Source: a virus (Duplodnaviria > Heunggongvirae > Uroviricota > Caudoviricetes). From it: a stretch of 44,601 nucleotides of DNA. The notes below the pieces were generated by a model that was not told the origin of the DNA, did no database searches, and saw only the letters and a program-made list of their open reading frames with translations. Of the stretch, positions 26,447-43,049 are shown piece after piece. The translations under genes were made by a program, and so were the position numbers. The stretch lies in IMG/VR virus record IMGVR_UViG_2711768005_000013. The stretch is one strand, 5' to 3'. How positions within the stretch are numbered: the first letter of the stretch is position 1; each line of letters begins with the position of its first letter.

Positions 26447-26976
26447 ACAGCGAATCAGATCAAATAAAACGCACATTTGTTAACATTTACACAAAGTCTG
26501 CGTGGGATATTCTGAAAGAATATCCATAATGTGGAGAGAATCTATTGAAGTGCATGGTGCCGGGTGCCTCCCGGTGAACAAAATGTTCGTGATACCTGTC
26601 GGCGACAGAAAAGGTTAATGGTATCACCCCACCGCACAGGGGGATTCACCATGCAGGAGTTTTCTTAGCAAACTCACTGCGCGCCCGGCAACTCCCAACC
26701 ACATAAAATGCGGAGTTTGTGGCATTTATGCATATAACTCGCAGGAATTATCTTAAAAAACTGATGTCGATCCGGATTAAAAAGAAGCAGGTCATCATCA
26801 GATGACTGGAAAAAAGGAAAACAAAAAATACTCATCATACAGTTTTGATTGCAGGGATGAGCCTGCTATGCACAATATGCAGAATATAAGCAAGATAAAA
26901 ATATGCAGGCATATTATTTCGGATCTTGTTATTAACACAACCTTTTTAATAATCATTTGGCATACAATAAACCAGC

Positions 26977-27974: not shown

Positions 27975-28261
27975 AAATGACCTTTCTTTCTCCAGATTTC
28001 TTGTGTGCGAAAAACCCCTTCAGCATGCATCAGGCGCAATTCTTCTTTGGTGTAATCGCTGGTTTTTACCCGCCCGTCGATTAGATCGTGGCATGAGCTA
28101 CAGGCTATCGCCGCCTGCATATCATGTGGTTTTGTCGCTGTTCCGCACGTCCCCGCCAGCCTGTAATGCGCCAGCACAGAGGTTTCGGGATTGTGATTGC
28201 AGTAGCCAGGGATTCTGATCTGGCACATCTGGCCTTTAGCCGCTTTACGTAAATTCACCAT
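27971..28261 (-). CDS. DUF1364 / YbcO-like putative nuclease
   Basis: 96 aa, MVNLRKAAKGQMCQIRIPGYCNHNPETSVLAHYRLAGTCGTATKP...CSSCHD; Cys pattern and sequence resemble DLP12 YbcO as recalled. Confidence 0.65.
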   Translation of the reverse strand: MVNLRKAAKGQMCQIRIPGYCNHNPETSVLAHYRLAGTCGTATKPHDMQAAIACSSCHDLIDGRVKTSDYTKEELRLMHAEGVFRTQEIWRKKGHL

Positions 28262-28860
28262 TACGCAAACTCCAGTAGTTGTGCGGCCACATTTTCAACT
28301 TCCTCCTGAGAGGAGAATTTACGGAACAGAATCCAGTTCCACAGCACATTCAGTACAGATTTATAAACCTGCTGAAACTCGACTTCGTCCATATTCGCAA
28401 AAGCGATGGATTTTGCCCGACGCCCACGGCTACCGTCCGGATAAATATGCTCGGTGTAAAATCCGGCCTGAATGGTTACCCACTCGCGGAAAGCCTCAAA
28501 CGACTTTAGCAACGCCGTATCCCGGGTTCTACGAGTCGCAACGGTGTTAAGGTATTGCTCTGCGGCATCACTCAGGGCTGGCGTGTGTTCCCGACCAACT
28601 GATTCGCACAGGTAATCAACGAAACCAGACAGCAGTTCTCGTTCGCGAGGCGTGATCGCCCCACCGACCGGAGTCCAGTAATCGAATCCCAGTTGCAGGA
28701 GTTTGAAAAAACGCTTGTGGAATGCGTAGTTACGCACACGCTTAAAGTCTGCGTGTATCCACTCACCTATTTTGATTTGATGCAGAAAATCGCAACTCTC
28801 CGGCGTCGCCGGGAGAAGTAAACCAGAAGAGGTTTGTTTGACCAGTTGTATATGCGCCAT
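28261..28860 (-). CDS. DUF1367 / YbcN-like protein
   Basis: 199 aa starting MAHIQLVKQTSSGLLLPATPE with FEAFREWVTIQAGFY segment; nin-region position. Confidence 0.6.
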   Translation of the reverse strand: MAHIQLVKQTSSGLLLPATPESCDFLHQIKIGEWIHADFKRVRNYAFHKRFFKLLQLGFDYWTPVGGAITPRERELLSGFVDYLCESVGREHTPALSDAAEQYLNTVATRRTRDTALLKSFEAFREWVTIQAGFYTEHIYPDGSRGRRAKSIAFANMDEVEFQQVYKSVLNVLWNWILFRKFSSQEEVENVAAQLLEFA

Positions 28861-29140
28861 TTCTCAATCTCTCGATGGCGCAGCGCAGCAGATGCCAGTT
28901 GTTCAGGCTGACGAATAAAGTATAAATAAACTGGCTATGGTGTAAAGCCCCACATAGCATGAACAAACACTACATATCAAATAGCTGGTACAAGGATAGA
29001 AATACGACACTTATTATTAAAAACGATTAGATAAATTACATTTTAATGTTATGCAAAAGTTCTTTTTTATCATAACATTTCAATAAAAGCATTACAGATG
29101 CAATCATCCCGTCATCATCAATTATTTAAGGTGGTTAAAC

Positions 29141-29227
29141 ATGGAAAATAACAAGTTCGCACATCTCGCTCCTTTTTTATCCGTAATCCTTTTCGCTTGT
29201 TGTTTTATATGGGCATTATTTTTATAA
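29141..29227 (+). CDS. Candidate small hydrophobic membrane peptide (28 aa), not in the supplied ORF track
   Basis: AAGGTGG SD 6 nt upstream of ATG; translates MENNKFAHLAPFLSVILFACCFIWALFL; lies in an 800-bp AT-rich stretch with no other credible ORF. Confidence 0.4.
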   Translation: MENNKFAHLAPFLSVILFACCFIWALFL

Positions 29228-29673
29228 AGTAGCCACATGATAAGTTGCTGGAATCATATTTCCCACTCAAGTCATTAACATTTGATAAGATATATCTAAA
29301 AGGACGCCTTTACATTATTTATGCGTATATAATTTATTTATATACACAGTAAAGGTATCCTGGGAAAATATTTATCGTTAAAAAATACATCATAAATAAT
29401 TAAGCTGAAATTTCAGAACACAACTAATACACACAATAAGGTTCAGTAACAGTAATCTATGTGGACTACATCGAGATTTTTTGATTAAACTTTAATAACT
29501 TATTCCTAACACACAGAATGCATAAACTAAAAGTAAAACAAATAGTTATACGAAAAACAACCATATTTATTCTATCTTCTCCTCTAATCAACATATCAAT
29601 TATGTGTTTCATAACAGCTTGACATAACCCTCCAAAAGATGCATTTTTAATGCATGTTTTGGAGGAGGTGGTT

Positions 29674-30012
29674 ATGACACACAAGAGAATTCCTAAAGAT
29701 TGGGTAATCAAACGCTCAACTCCGTTCTTCACAAAAGAGAACGTACCTTCAGCGTTATTAACACATCATAATACAGCAGCAGGTGTTTTTGGGCAGTTGT
29801 GCGTAATGGAAGGCACTGTAACATATTATGGTTTTACTGATGAGAATGCTACTGAACCGGAGATAAAAGTAGTCATTAATGCTGGCGCTTTTGCAACAAG
29901 CCCACCACAATACTGGCACCGTGTTGAACTAAGCGATGATGCTCAGTTTAATATTAACTTTTGGGTCGCTCCAGACTTTTCGGGCGAAAAAGTCTATAGC
30001 ACCAAAAAATAG
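29674..30012 (+). CDS. DUF1971 (TehB N-terminal-like) domain protein
   Basis: GGAGGAGG SD before ATG at 29674 (ORF-track start 29650 is upstream); motifs HHNTAAGVFGQL...PQYWHRVELSDD match the DUF1971 pattern HNTK.G.WG.L....P..WHRVE.LSDD. Confidence 0.6.
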   Translation: MTHKRIPKDWVIKRSTPFFTKENVPSALLTHHNTAAGVFGQLCVMEGTVTYYGFTDENATEPEIKVVINAGAFATSPPQYWHRVELSDDAQFNINFWVAPDFSGEKVYSTKK

Positions 30013-30632: not shown

Positions 30633-31634
30633 TTAGTAATCTGCGTGTTTCGCACTTTTCAGAAATGCTTTCATATTTTCATTAGGTCGCTCAATTTCGA
30701 AGTTACTTCCATATAACTCTTGTAATTTTGGCCATAACTTACTTAATAACCCTCTCCTGCGATAAAATGGATGTATCCAAACGGTAGATAGGTACGGAGA
30801 ATTTGCATTTGAATTGTTTATTGTGACCAGCCCAACTAAACATTGTCGATAACCACTATTATCCATTGATTGTATTTCTTCGACGAATGGATACGCGATT
30901 ACATCAGTCCAACCATGATCGGTTGTATCCCATTGCATTCCGTCATGACATTCCTTCGACTGATAGCGGCGTAAAGCTACACACGCGAGCTTTTGCCAAT
31001 CTGGAGAATTAATTGTGATCTCTTCATCGTATGACGCGCCTATTGGAGCGGGTATTGGTCTGATTAATCCAGCATGGCATTCATCATAGAACTTCATGTT
31101 TCCCTCAGAAACGTTGTGTACGTTGGGTTGCTCCATGTGTGCGCCATTCAAAAATAGCTCTGATAGTAGTGTATCTACACTGTAATCTTTATTGATTATT
31201 GTCGGCTTAGAGTTTTTCTTATTAAGGCCGCGAGTAACGATTTTTTGATCAATGTTAACAACATGGAATAATCCGTCGGGGAGGCTAGCGAACCACGATG
31301 GGGCATCGGACCAGAATAGCATGCCTTTTGTACTTCTTAAGAGTTTAATTAAGTTAATACAAGCTTCTTCACTAGTCTTGCCGTTGATGCGAAGTATGTT
31401 AGGACTAAAGTAATATTCATCCATATCAGGGAATGCAGCTTCGCAAAACTCCTGTACATAATTTAGCACCTGGATTCTACAGAGATCATCATAGCTGGTA
31501 ATAACTAAGGGGGTATCTTCATTACTATTATGATTATCAATAATGCAATCTATAGCGAGACTTACTGCTTTGCGTATCACTTCAGTTGAATCTAACGACT
31601 CTAAAAATTTTGTCTTTCGTGTGCGAATATCCAT
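30633..31634 (-). CDS. Uncharacterised protein with C-terminal GNAT-like acetyltransferase motif
   Basis: 333 aa; C-terminal VWIHPFYRRRGLLSKLW...NENMKAFLKS resembles GNAT motif A; N-terminal about 220 aa unrecognised; 15 bp downstream of the preceding ORF. Confidence 0.45.
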   Translation of the reverse strand: MDIRTRKTKFLESLDSTEVIRKAVSLAIDCIIDNHNSNEDTPLVITSYDDLCRIQVLNYVQEFCEAAFPDMDEYYFSPNILRINGKTSEEACINLIKLLRSTKGMLFWSDAPSWFASLPDGLFHVVNIDQKIVTRGLNKKNSKPTIINKDYSVDTLLSELFLNGAHMEQPNVHNVSEGNMKFYDECHAGLIRPIPAPIGASYDEEITINSPDWQKLACVALRRYQSKECHDGMQWDTTDHGWTDVIAYPFVEEIQSMDNSGYRQCLVGLVTINNSNANSPYLSTVWIHPFYRRRGLLSKLWPKLQELYGSNFEIERPNENMKAFLKSAKHADY

Positions 31635-31649
31635 GTATGACCTGCGCTA

Positions 31650-32672
31650 TTAAAATTCATGAATGAACGGTTTGTCATCTGGTTGCAAAATGGTGGTTTT
31701 ATTCGTTGCTACATTTAAACTGTTGTAGAGCATAATTGCCAGGTTCGATGCATTTTCAATCAGCGTTTCAAGATCCTGGTCTGTAATCACTACGAGGTTC
31801 CCTTCTTTATCCTTTCCACCACGATGCACTAAGTGATTTCGATTGAGGGTTGCCAATTCAATAGCTTCTATCGGACAGTCTTTTTGTACTTTTATATCGA
31901 ATGTAGCTTCATAGCGGTCGATTACCTTTTTAGTGCTATGCCAGCTTGCACTGATCAAGTGTTCCTTGATTGACCTGATTAGCTCTCCCCTAATTTTCTC
32001 GATGGGTTCACCCTTGAAAGGCAACGCAGCAATATCTTTGCTTACTTTAAATTCAGTCTTACCTTTTTCTATACAATTGGCTATGTAGACATCATCTTTC
32101 TCTATAGAATTAATGAATAGCTCAACATAAAGCGTTTCCAAAGCTGTAATAACATTCGTGTAGAGCAAACTAAGCAAGTGGTTTTTTTGCTGTTGTTCAG
32201 TTTTATCTTTTGCAAGTTTTTTTATTTTATCGATATTATCAATGAATTTTAAATACGGATTACCGGAAGACGTTACAGCGTCGTAGATATCATCATCGTA
32301 CCAATCATCTATATTATTTGAGTTTCCAGACCAGTCAAAACATTGTGTTTGTAATTCATCTACTAATTCCTCAATATACTCAGATTTAACATATTGACCG
32401 AAGATGGATTGTAGTTCTTCGCTCGCATCATACGGCCCGCCATATATGTAAGCATAGCCACCTTCTCTACTTTCATACGGACAAGCATTTGCCGGATCTT
32501 CAAAGTTTTCAAAGAACCAGTTTTTCATTACTTCGAGTTGATCTTTTTTGCTTATGTATTTTAAAGATTTTAGTGGAACTTTCTTTCCATTAACCTCGAA
32601 AACAATTTTCACGATGTAACGCTCCCTTGTATCAATTGCGCAACTATTATACCACAGCGAAATACAGGGCAT
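31650..32672 (-). CDS. Uncharacterised protein with C-terminal HEPN-type Rx4H motif
   Basis: Start taken at ATG 32670-32672 with AAGGAGG SD 6 nt upstream (ORF-track GTG start at 32741 less likely); RNHLVH at 31824-31841; rest of protein unrecognised. Confidence 0.45.
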   Translation of the reverse strand: MPCISLWYNSCAIDTRERYIVKIVFEVNGKKVPLKSLKYISKKDQLEVMKNWFFENFEDPANACPYESREGGYAYIYGGPYDASEELQSIFGQYVKSEYIEELVDELQTQCFDWSGNSNNIDDWYDDDIYDAVTSSGNPYLKFIDNIDKIKKLAKDKTEQQQKNHLLSLLYTNVITALETLYVELFINSIEKDDVYIANCIEKGKTEFKVSKDIAALPFKGEPIEKIRGELIRSIKEHLISASWHSTKKVIDRYEATFDIKVQKDCPIEAIELATLNRNHLVHRGGKDKEGNLVVITDQDLETLIENASNLAIMLYNSLNVATNKTTILQPDDKPFIHEF

Positions 32673-32810
32673 AACCTGCCTCCTTAAACTAACATACCAT
32701 GAGCCAGCAATGTCCGCTATTGGCACAAAGCGGACAACCACGCTAGCTCTCCCCTGTGCCAGAAAAATGTCAATTTACATATGAACTAATGCTCTTTGAT
32801 CTAGTAACGT

Positions 32811-35682: not shown

Positions 35683-36105
35683 TTAATGAACAATGACAGA
35701 ATCGTCGGAAGACCCGCCGCCGCTGAAATGCGCTTTCCGGTAAACGGCTTGGACTGCATCATCATGCGCATCAATTGCCGTACTTAACGCTTCCTGCGCC
35801 GCCAGTAATGCACGGCGTTCCAGGGTATCGAAGATGCAGAGTCGGTGACGCAGCTCGCGCGGAAGGATTGCCAGAATTGCTGGGATCAGCTTCTGAATTT
35901 TTTCTCTTTGCGTTTTCGTTTCACCTTTCAACCAACGGTGATAGATATTCTGCTGATTATTCCAGTCCTTGCCTGGTACCAGGGGCAATTCGCCGCCCCC
36001 CTGGCGCAGATATTCTTCAGTAATGGCATTGGCTACCCATGCCTGCCCTTTTTCGGCTGCCAGGGCTAACAACACTGACTCGATGTGCTCATGCTTGATT
36101 TTCAT
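35683..36105 (-). CDS. ydaT: YdaT-like protein
   Basis: 140 aa, matching recalled YdaT length and position downstream of ydaS. Confidence 0.6.
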   Translation of the reverse strand: MKIKHEHIESVLLALAAEKGQAWVANAITEEYLRQGGGELPLVPGKDWNNQQNIYHRWLKGETKTQREKIQKLIPAILAILPRELRHRLCIFDTLERRALLAAQEALSTAIDAHDDAVQAVYRKAHFSGGGSSDDSVIVH

Positions 36106-36356
36106 GAATCAACTCCCATCAGCTTTTTCGTAGTAGTTTTATTTCTGCCAATAGTTAAAATTACATCAGCAGAAAATAATCCGTTTGATGCATGAGCGAT
36201 TTTTTCAGCGTAATTTGTTTCGCCGGTATATTCTGTGCGAGGCAATTTTCCGTTATCCATCCATTTGTAGATTGCTCTTTGGCTGACACCACAAACGTCG
36301 GCCACAACAGAAACGCGAACAGTTTTGATTACATCTTCAAGTGTTTTCTGGTTCAT
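36102..36356 (-). CDS. ydaS: Cro-like HTH protein YdaS-like
   Basis: HTH segment VADVCGVSQRAIYKWM; start taken at ATG 36354-36356 with GAGGG SD (ORF-track start 36428 is upstream); divergent from racR. Confidence 0.55.
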   Translation of the reverse strand: MNQKTLEDVIKTVRVSVVADVCGVSQRAIYKWMDNGKLPRTEYTGETNYAEKIAHASNGLFSADVILTIGRNKTTTKKLMGVDS

Positions 36357-36417
36357 ATCACCCTCACAATGTGAACTTTGAGTACATGCTATAACAGAAC
36401 TGACAGTACATTCAAGA

Positions 36418-36855
36418 GTGAATATCATTGAACTTATGGTTCATGAAGATAAAGCGCGTAAAGAGTTCGCCAGTAGGCTTGCGCTAGCCTGTGAAAACGC
36501 TGGTTATGAACAACATGGAAGGCAGGCAGAAATTGCCCGTCGAATGAAATTAACACCAAAAGCGGTTAGCAAATGGTTTAATGGCGAAACAATTCCTCGC
36601 CGAGAGAAATTAAGGGAATTAGCAACACTCATTGGAACAACACCAACCTATCTTTTGGGAGAGGATACAGAAGAAAGTGGACAGGTACGTTTCTATCAGG
36701 AGTTAAATCCAAGACAAAAAATCATCATTGACCTTCTGGACGAGCTCCCTGACAGTGAGACAGATGAACTTTTAAAAACTCTTGAGGAGAAAAAACAGAA
36801 GTACAATGCAATTTACGAAGAGCTAGCACGAAAGAAAAAACAAAAAGCCTCTTAA
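36418..36855 (+). CDS. racR: Prophage repressor RacR-like (HTH)
   Basis: HTH segment RQAEIARRMKLTPKAVSKWFNGETIP; divergent to ydaS; start codon uncertain (GTG 36418 or ATG 36436). Confidence 0.6.
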   Translation: MNIIELMVHEDKARKEFASRLALACENAGYEQHGRQAEIARRMKLTPKAVSKWFNGETIPRREKLRELATLIGTTPTYLLGEDTEESGQVRFYQELNPRQKIIIDLLDELPDSETDELLKTLEEKKQKYNAIYEELARKKKQKAS

Positions 36856-37446: not shown

Positions 37447-37931
37447 CGATTAAAACGTCTACTCCTGCTGTTCCAGAATAACTTCATAAAATGGGAGTAT
37501 TTTTCGGTGACGAGATAATAAGAACAGTTTGCGCTATCACTCTGATGTTGAATGATGCCCTTCCGTTCTAATTTTTTCATAACCGGGTTACGGCAAGGAG
37601 AAGTGATAATAAGATTTCCTGTTTTAAGGAAATCTTTAAATACAGCGATTTCTTTCTCAGATAAACGAAGCAATACTCGTTGCTCTGGTAGTAATGAATA
37701 ATGCTTTTGAATATGTGCTCGCAATCTTGAGAAGGAAATGGCGACCACGAAAGAAAAGGCAAAAACGATAATCTGAAAGAGCCAAGGTATTTCAGTATAA
37801 GCATTGAATGCGACAGTAAACTCTTTCGGTATCAGCCAGAGAGTGAGACCAAAAATGATAATCGTATACATAAGTATTTCGAGTGGCTCGTTAGCAAAAA
37901 GTTTCAACAATGGAGTAAATACATCCAACAT
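37443..37931 (-). CDS. sieB: Superinfection exclusion protein B
   Basis: 162 aa from ATG at 37929-37931 (MLDVFTPLLKLFANEP...) with membrane segments; Rac position. Confidence 0.7.
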   Translation of the reverse strand: MLDVFTPLLKLFANEPLEILMYTIIIFGLTLWLIPKEFTVAFNAYTEIPWLFQIIVFAFSFVVAISFSRLRAHIQKHYSLLPEQRVLLRLSEKEIAVFKDFLKTGNLIITSPCRNPVMKKLERKGIIQHQSDSANCSYYLVTEKYSHFMKLFWNSRSRRFNR

Positions 37932-38372
37932 ATCAATAACTCTCAACTGTAAGGGTATTGAAATGTTAACACAAGCTCTCGCTGTAGGGGTATAGCCGAG
38001 ACCACCGAAGCCCGGAGGTGGTGAAATAAAACCGGGCACAACACGAAGGCGCATTTCCGATATCCATAAAGAGTCGGTCTTGTCTGTTAAATTTAAATGG
38101 TGGGAGTGCGCCTCCGGTTGTAAATAACGACATTGCTGTGTGTAGTCCTGGCGGCATCAGTTTTTTTCTTGAAGTTCGGCTGATGTCCGCCCTTTTTAAA
38201 GTGAATTTTGTGATGCGGTGAATGCGGCTAAGCGCACGTGGCACAGTTAAAAGTCATGTTAGTCCTTATTGGTTTGGGTGGGAAAGCCGACTGTAATTGT
38301 TAACTGGTTGCAGTCACCTGGAGGCACCAGGCACCGCATCAACAAAGTTCATTTGTAAAAATGGAGATAATT

Positions 38373-42860: not shown

Positions 42861-43049
42861 ATGTATAAAATTACCGCCACTATTGAAAAGGAAGGTGGCA
42901 CTCCTACTAACTGGACAAGATATTCAAAATCTAAACTAACGAAATCAGAATGCGAAAAAATGCTCTCAGGTAAAAAAGAAGCAGGCGTTTCCAGAGAGCA
43001 GAAAGTAAAACTGATAAATTTTAATTGCGAGAAACTTCAGTCCTCGTGA
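42861..43049 (+). CDS. ydaC: YdaC-like small protein
   Basis: GGAGG SD before ATG 42861 (MYKITATIEKEGG...); alternative in-frame ATG at 42849. Confidence 0.5.
   Translation: MYKITATIEKEGGTPTNWTRYSKSKLTKSECEKMLSGKKEAGVSREQKVKLINFNCEKLQSS

Follow-up and report, generated by a model that had tools for sequence, protein, structure and literature searches.

This report concerns a small open reading frame (ORF) of 28 codons in a window of 44,601 nucleotides of viral DNA (Caudoviricetes; IMG/VR virus record IMGVR_UViG_2711768005_000013), the window being the whole stretch analysed, which by its sequence is a Rac-like lambdoid prophage of Escherichia coli. The original prediction, made from the letters of the window alone, had placed here an unannotated hydrophobic peptide, and the ORF was found as claimed: it starts at ATG 29141, ends at TAA 29225-29227 on the + strand and encodes the 28-aa product MENNKFAHLAPFLSVILFACCFIWALFL. 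No earlier in-frame start is present upstream of this ATG, and the upstream in-frame stop lies at 29084. The peptide has a short polar head, MENNKxAH, followed by a hydrophobic helix of 19-20 residues, with a grand average of hydropathy (GRAVY) of 2.5 for residues 9-28, which agrees with the single helix that had been proposed. The Shine-Dalgarno (SD) sequence AAGGTGG at 29128-29134, with its 6-nt spacer to the ATG, was likewise borne out by the sequence. Its description as strong held for the window allele, in which the SD:anti-SD duplex energy is -10.2 kcal/mol, and for the B1 allele (-8.5 kcal/mol), but not for the commonest allele elsewhere, the hokD-linked AAAGTGAG (-4.4 kcal/mol); the corresponding value in L046, a locus described below, is -5.9 kcal/mol.

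The AT-richness of the surrounding DNA was also evident, as the GC content of 28900-29700 is 26-33%, compared with 46-56% in the phage genes to the left. The same 800 bp had been called gene-free, and RefSeq/PGAP indeed annotates nothing there, but the stretch really consists of three distinct pieces (28861-28946, approximately 28990-29231 and 29232-29673). In an identical RefSeq record, the annotation passes directly from the DUF1367 gene (28261-28860, - strand) to the DUF1971 gene (29674-30012, + strand), and neither the listed RefSeq/PGAP rows nor the four phage records with the ORF show any gene beneath it. Approximately 10 further ORFs of 20-88 aa are listed within these 800 bp. A small ORF by itself is therefore not beyond chance in this DNA, and the case must rest on comparison.

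Conservation of the small gene

Of 5426 complete E. coli genomes, 852 match the 840 bp around the ORF. The window-type arrangement is present in about 460 genomes, and a version of only 76-79% identity, whose match covers exactly 28861-29228 and thus stops at the stop codon, is present in about 366. A peptide-pattern scan revealed 193 relatives in viral contigs; among one-genome-per-species representatives, the same scan found relatives only in Shigella flexneri and Escherichia ruysiae, a pattern-based result in which relatives lacking both MENN[KN]xxH and PFLS[VI]ILF would escape. When a 43-bp conserved box upstream of the ORF was searched alone, at least 120 further viral loci were recovered. 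The pooled fetched loci contained 209 copies of this box, 207 of which were readable far enough, and all 207 have an intact 28-codon ORF 85-92 nt later. No pseudogene or disrupted ORF was present among these copies, and the ORF is thus conserved in related prophages with the same length and frame throughout. In total, the box, leader, SD and ORF, which together we refer to as the cassette, occur in 47 distinct sequences with 20 ORF alleles at the nucleotide level and 16 peptides, all of 28 codons. The cassette is present in one copy per genome, rarely two; in K-12 it is absent from the DLP12 region and from the inspected part of Qin.

Alignment of the 16 peptides revealed that M1-E-N-N4, H8, C21, W24 and A25 are invariant and that 15 of these peptides have PFLS at positions 11-14. 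Additionally, I16-L-F18 and F27-L28 do not vary among six aligned peptides. The nucleotide differences between alleles followed the pattern expected of a translated sequence. In particular, the ratio of non-synonymous to synonymous differences per site (pN/pS) between the main allele groups or clades is 0.11-0.4; for the window and L046, which differ by 10 synonymous and 5 non-synonymous changes, pS is 0.62 and pN is 0.07. Variable sites at codon positions 1, 2 and 3 number 6, 10 and 17, respectively, and 20 of 40 single-step changes are synonymous as against 21-28% expected (P between 5e-5 and 2e-3 according to the transition bias assumed). Frame +0 is the sole frame of six without stops in all 20 alleles, and the per-column diversity of the ORF is 0.02-0.23 compared with 0.26-0.36 in the leader. 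It is this comparative evidence of frame, length and selection, and not the lone sequence, that leads us to judge the ORF highly likely to be a real protein-coding gene. There is good evidence that the peptide is made and matters, as far as alignments can indicate, though the family is young and the counts are small.

Gene callers such as Prodigal usually apply a minimum gene length of 90 nt. The six commonest peptide variants have no exact match in a collection of 15 billion proteins, an absence to be expected for a gene of 87 nt that falls below this minimum. Searches of Pfam, NCBIfam, PHROGs and PADLOC gave best E values of 0.05-0.4, far below cut-offs, all to hydrophobic segments. The peptide string was not found in the literature searched, nor in the supplement of an enterohaemorrhagic E. 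coli (EHEC) translatome obtained by ribosome profiling (Ribo-seq); the latter result is consistent with the examined O157:H7 genome, which does not contain the cassette. A 2026 preprint on the small proteome of the uropathogenic E. coli (UPEC) strain CFT073 reports six new small membrane proteins.

The cassette and its surroundings

The features of the locus are collected in Table 1. Two islands are conserved in the cassette, the 43-bp box and the SD together with the ORF, with diverged sequence between and around them. Within the box, the per-column diversity is 0.03-0.08 compared with 0.26-0.36 on either side, and C29010 also belongs to the conserved island. The box probably holds the promoter and the mRNA 5' end; in the hokD/IteAS-type alleles, a position weight matrix (PWM) scan identified a candidate promoter with a good -35, TTGCTG-16-TATTAT. 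We found the stem of the leader hairpin to be retained in 47 of 47 distinct cassettes, while its loop varies. Internal changes in the stem (C>U, A>G) preserve pairing on the + strand, as G.U or U.G, but produce mismatches on the - strand, whereas one terminal-pair change favours the - strand instead. A conserved RNA structure across the whole leader was not supported. A 10-nt direct repeat, CTTTTTTATC, occurs at 29062-29071 in the hairpin loop and again at 29172-29181 in the ORF codons P-F-L-S, in the window-type allele only.

Table 1. Positions of the small gene, its cassette and associated signals in the window
Feature	Position	Strand	Remarks
Small ORF	29141..29227	+	28 codons (range includes stop); polar N-terminal head and one predicted transmembrane helix reaching the C-terminus
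Shine-Dalgarno AAGGTGG	29128..29134	+	6 nt 5' of ATG; pairs with 16S 3' end
Autonomous cassette (box, leader, SD, ORF), ~240 bp	28990..29231	+	right homology end 1-4 nt past stop; left end between ~28988 and 29007
Upstream box, 43 bp, nearly invariant: TTATTATTAAAA-N4-TTA-N3-AAATT-N2-ATTTTAATGTTATG	29011..29053	+	most conserved non-coding cassette piece
Candidate -10 TATTAT, invariant	29012..29017	+	own PWM scan; predicted start ~29024, leader ~115 nt
Leader hairpin AAUGUUAUG / CAUAACAUU	29045..29079 (arms 29045-53 / 29071-79)	+	8-9 bp stem; sequence-variable 17-nt loop
Candidate antisense promoter, -35 TTTCCA (complement of TGGAAA start region), 15-nt spacer, -10 AATAAT	29121..29147	-	predicted RNA complementary to leader
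Predicted promoter of DUF1367-DUF1364-DUF1133(Q-like) operon, TTTACA-16-TATACT	28919..28946	-	sigma-70-like, 10/12 consensus matches; outside small-gene cassette

Other candidate features were rejected. Small upstream ORFs beginning within the box (ATGTTATGC...) vary in length and have no SD. A 38-aa ORF on the opposite strand (29122-29238) was set aside because each - strand frame is open in at most 11 of the 20 alleles. Short similarities between the leader and 37789-37968 are at chance level and lie within a sieB-like gene.

Comparison of the flanks revealed right flanks of four unrelated kinds (7 identity clusters) and left flanks of few classes. The right neighbour in the window type is the AT-rich spacer with the DUF1971 gene (467 genomes, always together). 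In the other alleles, this place is taken by the 3' end and terminator of a convergent hokD, by a bidirectional terminator with the anti-phage iteS/iteA pair, by an ORF of 752 aa in which an NTPase-like motif was recognised by eye, or by a 601-aa ORF. Both flanks of L046 are unrelated to those of the window, yet the box, leader and ORF are retained. The differing left flank of one further locus, L036, was found to be an insertion sequence (IS) insertion. The DUF1367 backbone is present in 1330 genomes and the cassette in 852, and the EHEC O157:H7 genome examined contains the DUF1367 backbone with other cargo and without the cassette. The unrelated neighbours, the backbones that do not contain it and its AT-rich composition thus indicate that the cassette is optional and autonomous, with a moron-like anatomy. 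Its carriers, judged from the loci compared, are Rac/lambdoid prophages and prophage remnants of Escherichia, in which it occupies the edge of a variable cargo hot spot. A literature search on IteA/IteS returned nothing relevant.

The hot spot itself lies just upstream of DUF1367 and holds hokD, IteAS, the 752-aa ORF, or DUF1971 with two unannotated genes; in O157:H7, the cargo at this site is an ATP-binding protein and an O-methyltransferase. In the O157:H7 strain ECP19-798 (L212, 3650-3720), the sequence directly upstream of DUF1367, at the place of the cassette in other strains, resembles the hokD 3' end and terminator (AAACCCGCCGAAGCTGGTT...) with no hok gene, and it looks like a hok remnant. 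This remnant suggests that the cassette and the promoter segment may be gained or lost as a block of ~300 bp. Many genomes with the hokD-linked allele have a prophage that ends right after hokD and is followed by host genes (a major facilitator superfamily (MFS) transporter, gamma-glutamylcyclotransferase and LysR; L005/L006, 3469-6376), and the small gene and hokD thus persist at the edge of a decayed prophage remnant.

The window was identified as a Rac-like element by a match to the small RNA (sRNA) RalA, the antitoxin of the RalR type I system, at 42867-43045 on the - strand (225 bits, Rfam gathering level). The sRNA STnc100 was also matched at the gathering level, at 26498-26684 on the - strand (87 bits). 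The early-right operon is on the - strand and consists of a helix-turn-helix (HTH) gene at 36102-36428, then YdaT, DUF1376 and DUF1627, then cargo. The cargo in the window is ordered 31650-32741, 30633-31634, then DUF1971 (+) and then the small ORF (+), beyond which lie DUF1367, DUF1364 and the DUF1133/Q-like antiterminator, all on the - strand. As the early-right operon is on the - strand and the small ORF on the + strand, the latter points against phage early transcription.

Some of these neighbours deserve description in their own right. The two-gene cargo at 30633-32741 (- strand) encodes a 363-aa protein (31650-32741), whose N-terminal domain weakly matches HEPN/RES (E 2e-4, below cut-off), and a 333-aa protein (30633-31634) with a weak match to GNAT acetyltransferases (E 9e-4); no PADLOC match was found for the pair, which may be an uncharacterised toxin or defence pair. 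The spacer at 29232-29673 (~440 bp, 26-31% GC) contains no credible ORFs and always accompanies the TehB N-terminal-like DUF1971 gene, in 467 E. coli genomes; an insertion of ~55 bp is present in it in some alleles. The DUF1971 gene has an unusually long SD, GGAGGAGGTGG, with a duplex energy of -19 kcal/mol. On the other side of the cassette, the conserved left part of the stretch that had been called gene-free is accounted for by the promoter and leader of the DUF1367 operon (28861-28946). The TTTACA-16-TATACT promoter is identical in the hokD/IteAS-type loci and was the top - strand PWM match in the five DUF1367-adjacent loci scanned. It is near consensus and lies ~50 nt upstream of the operon, and a stand-alone promoter before a Q-like antiterminator operon is unexpected in the late-regulatory region of a lambdoid phage. 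In the O157:H7 prophage examined, homology ends ~50 nt upstream of DUF1367, short of this promoter.

Interpretation and alternative readings

The ORF is very probably an unannotated, Escherichia-restricted prophage gene that encodes a 28-aa single-pass membrane peptide and forms part of a self-contained, moron-like cassette. We propose that the gene would be transcribed in the lysogen from its own box promoter with the -10 element TATTAT, and that the AT-rich cassette DNA may be silenced by H-NS. The peptide would insert into the inner membrane through its single helix in an N-in/C-out orientation. Most likely it would then bind a membrane protein of the host, for instance a transporter or a component of phage entry, in the manner of morons and to the benefit of the lysogen; this partner and this benefit are purely inferred. 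On induction, early-right transcription would run antisense through the small gene and switch it off. We estimate a probability of about 0.6 that lysogen expression, N-in/C-out insertion and action as a small modulator or exclusion-type membrane protein all hold together.

Several points weigh against this proposal. The family is confined to Escherichia and only ~25-30% diverged, which leaves 40 changes as the basis of the selection tests. Alleles are tied to their cargo, as seen for the window allele with DUF1971 in 467 genomes, and part of the conservation therefore reflects recent common descent. Transcription and translation of the ORF are both predicted: the window allele has only a poor -35 (TACAAG) before TATTAT, the consensus promoter scanner did not report the TATTAT promoter in the box, and the commonest allele has a weak SD (-4.4 kcal/mol). 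Finally, the peptide might equally be membrane-toxic.

Toxicity is the core of the first alternative, in which the peptide is the toxin of a type I toxin-antitoxin (TA) system that damages or depolarises the inner membrane, with its translation held in check by an antisense RNA complementary to the leader and by a fold that occludes the SD. The original prediction had described the size and composition as typical of type I toxins or small membrane proteins. The part concerning a small membrane protein was supported by the length, frame, selection and helix, whereas the part concerning a toxin found no match among toxin families or in Rfam. The size (28 aa) and hydrophobic composition of the peptide do fit a type I toxin, and the hydrophobic stretch is conserved in 16 peptide variants. 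Moreover, hokD is the immediate neighbour in most alleles, and the cassette sits at a toxin/defence hot spot. Nevertheless, a search against small-protein and type I toxin families returned nothing above cut-offs; no match was obtained to Hok, Ldr, Ibs, TisB, ShoB or other families, and no Rfam RNA was found in 28700-29800 at either the gathering or permissive thresholds.

The evidence for an antisense RNA differed among alleles. In the hokD/IteAS-type (B-type) alleles, the scanner reported a - strand promoter, TTTCCA-16-TATGAT (9/12), over the SD and start codon, and a - strand terminator-like hairpin, CGCTTTTAATAATAAGCG, with a T-rich tail is present inside the box, ~105 nt downstream. A -10-like xATrAT is retained at the antisense position in all four allele types. 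However, such promoter and terminator matches were not more numerous than in shuffled sequence, and the antisense -35 is fixed anyway by the codons ATG-GAA-AA. The window allele has an antisense spacer of 15 nt and a disrupted terminator hairpin, the hairpin of L046 is without a T tail, and no antisense unit is conserved across all alleles. A second candidate antisense promoter, past the stop codon (TTATCA-17-AATAAT), was rejected, as the conserved cassette does not extend to its -35 and the IteAS-type alleles have lost its -10.

A similar picture emerged for RNA structure. The conserved leader stem with its variable 17-nt loop resembles antisense recognition loops, and a 7-bp SD/anti-SD helix persists in the leaders of the B-type alleles across compensatory U-A > U.G > C-G changes. 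Yet the SD was no less accessible than in shuffled controls, and its pairing partners differ among alleles. The folding z-score of the putative antisense RNA was only -1.2 to -2.0, RNAalifold gave no net covariation support on either strand, and no complementary RNA was found elsewhere in the window. The presence of a single copy per genome, rarely two, also speaks against a type I toxin. Overall, this explanation is the main rival to our proposal, though we regard it as unlikely. A fuller version, which we would call unlikely, sees the cassette as a type I TA-like or abortive-infection module, in which a 28-aa membrane-active peptide would be checked by a leader-antisense RNA from a promoter overlapping the start codon, and which would act as a fixed sentinel bordering the hot spot of hokD, IteAS and NTPase-like cargo.

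A second alternative holds that the conserved element is an RNA or DNA signal, such as a regulatory leader, an sRNA, an operator or a recombination anchor for cargo exchange, with the ORF being incidental. The box is conserved more than the ORF, GCTCCTTTTTTATC within the coding region hardly varies, synonymous sites included, and homology breaks sharply after the stop codon. Additionally, the -10-like hexamer is surrounded by a palindrome, CRCTT-N8-AAGYG, which shows co-variation when L046 is compared with the B-type alleles. The box and GCTCCTTTTTTATC do suggest an extra constraint at the nucleic-acid level. However, the excess of third-position changes, a pN/pS well below 1 and the opening of only frame +0 in all alleles are signatures of translation, and neither a consensus RNA structure across the ORF nor an Rfam match was found, which makes an incidental ORF improbable.

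We consider it very improbable that the ORF is a cis-acting leader peptide or upstream ORF controlling the downstream gene, here DUF1971. It is short, lies on the same strand as DUF1971 and is always linked to it in the window allele, but the downstream gene is unrelated or convergent in 4 of 5 contexts (hokD, iteS and the 752-aa and 601-aa ORFs) in which the ORF is retained, ~446 bp separate the ORF from the DUF1971 start, and DUF1971 has its own very strong SD (-19 kcal/mol). Equally little speaks for a lipoprotein signal peptide that would be cleaved before Cys20 to leave a 9-residue lipopeptide. The lipobox requires G, A or S at position -1. The ILFA|C of the window allele fits a relaxed lipobox, and weak NCBIfam matches were obtained to a Borrelia lipoprotein signal region (E 0.05-0.75, far below cut-off), but position -1 is L or F in the commonest alleles (VLCC or VFCC), so that the lipobox [LVI][ASTVI][GAS]C is not conserved, and a mature peptide of 8-9 residues would have no precedent. 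Lastly, a chance ORF in AT-rich DNA would fit with the abundance of 20-88 aa ORFs in these 800 bp, but the intact copies, the pN/pS values and the open frame contradict this reading, which can hardly be correct.

The small gene is present in about one-sixth (~16%) of complete E. coli genomes and yet is invisible to standard annotation pipelines. It adds to the catalogue of small membrane proteins a testable member with a natural allelic series and carrier strains in the public National Collection of Type Cultures (NCTC); the window allele is carried by NCTC9066, NCTC10444 and NCTC9112 and also by strain LD39-1. The small gene moreover forms the conserved border of a prophage hot spot that exchanges toxin and anti-phage cargo. 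Should it prove toxic or act in exclusion, lysogen fitness would have a widespread contributor that has been overlooked; were it neither, it would still correct the annotation of E. coli prophages. The gene is widespread and cleanly testable, and a gene of this kind is not surprising.

Comparison with known systems

To place the small gene among known systems, we compared it with type I toxins, small inner-membrane proteins and morons. Like the type I toxins Hok/Gef, Ibs, ShoB, TisB, Ldr, DinQ and ZorO, the product is a peptide of less than 60 aa and nearly all one hydrophobic helix. Both are also encoded by short stand-alone cassettes with a long leader, here a predicted one, in prophage or hot-spot DNA, and the small gene is often beside hokD. 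The possible antisense promoter overlapping the translation start is reminiscent of hok/sok in particular. In contrast to type I toxins, the small gene has no sequence or profile similarity to them, no antisense RNA conserved in all alleles and no SD-hiding fold beyond chance, and it occurs as a single copy per genome.

The small inner-membrane proteins of E. coli that ribosome profiling or tagging brought to light, including MgtS, AcrZ, PmrR, YohP and YnfS, are similar to the peptide in that they have 25-50 aa and a single transmembrane helix and were missed by gene callers. YnfS, of 29 aa, shares further traits with it: it is borne by a prophage (Qin), starts with MNN and has a CC pair in the helix. 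A relationship between the two was considered and rejected, as they look alike by eye but BLASTP finds nothing, and there is no detectable similarity between YnfS and the 28-aa peptide.

Morons such as lambda bor and lom and HK97 gp15, which mediates superinfection exclusion, differ from the small gene in that it is far smaller than those described and its promoter and terminator are only predicted. In their general anatomy, the two are similar: like the morons, the small gene is optional, has a lower GC content than the flanking phage operon and the opposite orientation to it, is present on part of otherwise identical backbones and is bounded by the terminators of neighbouring genes.

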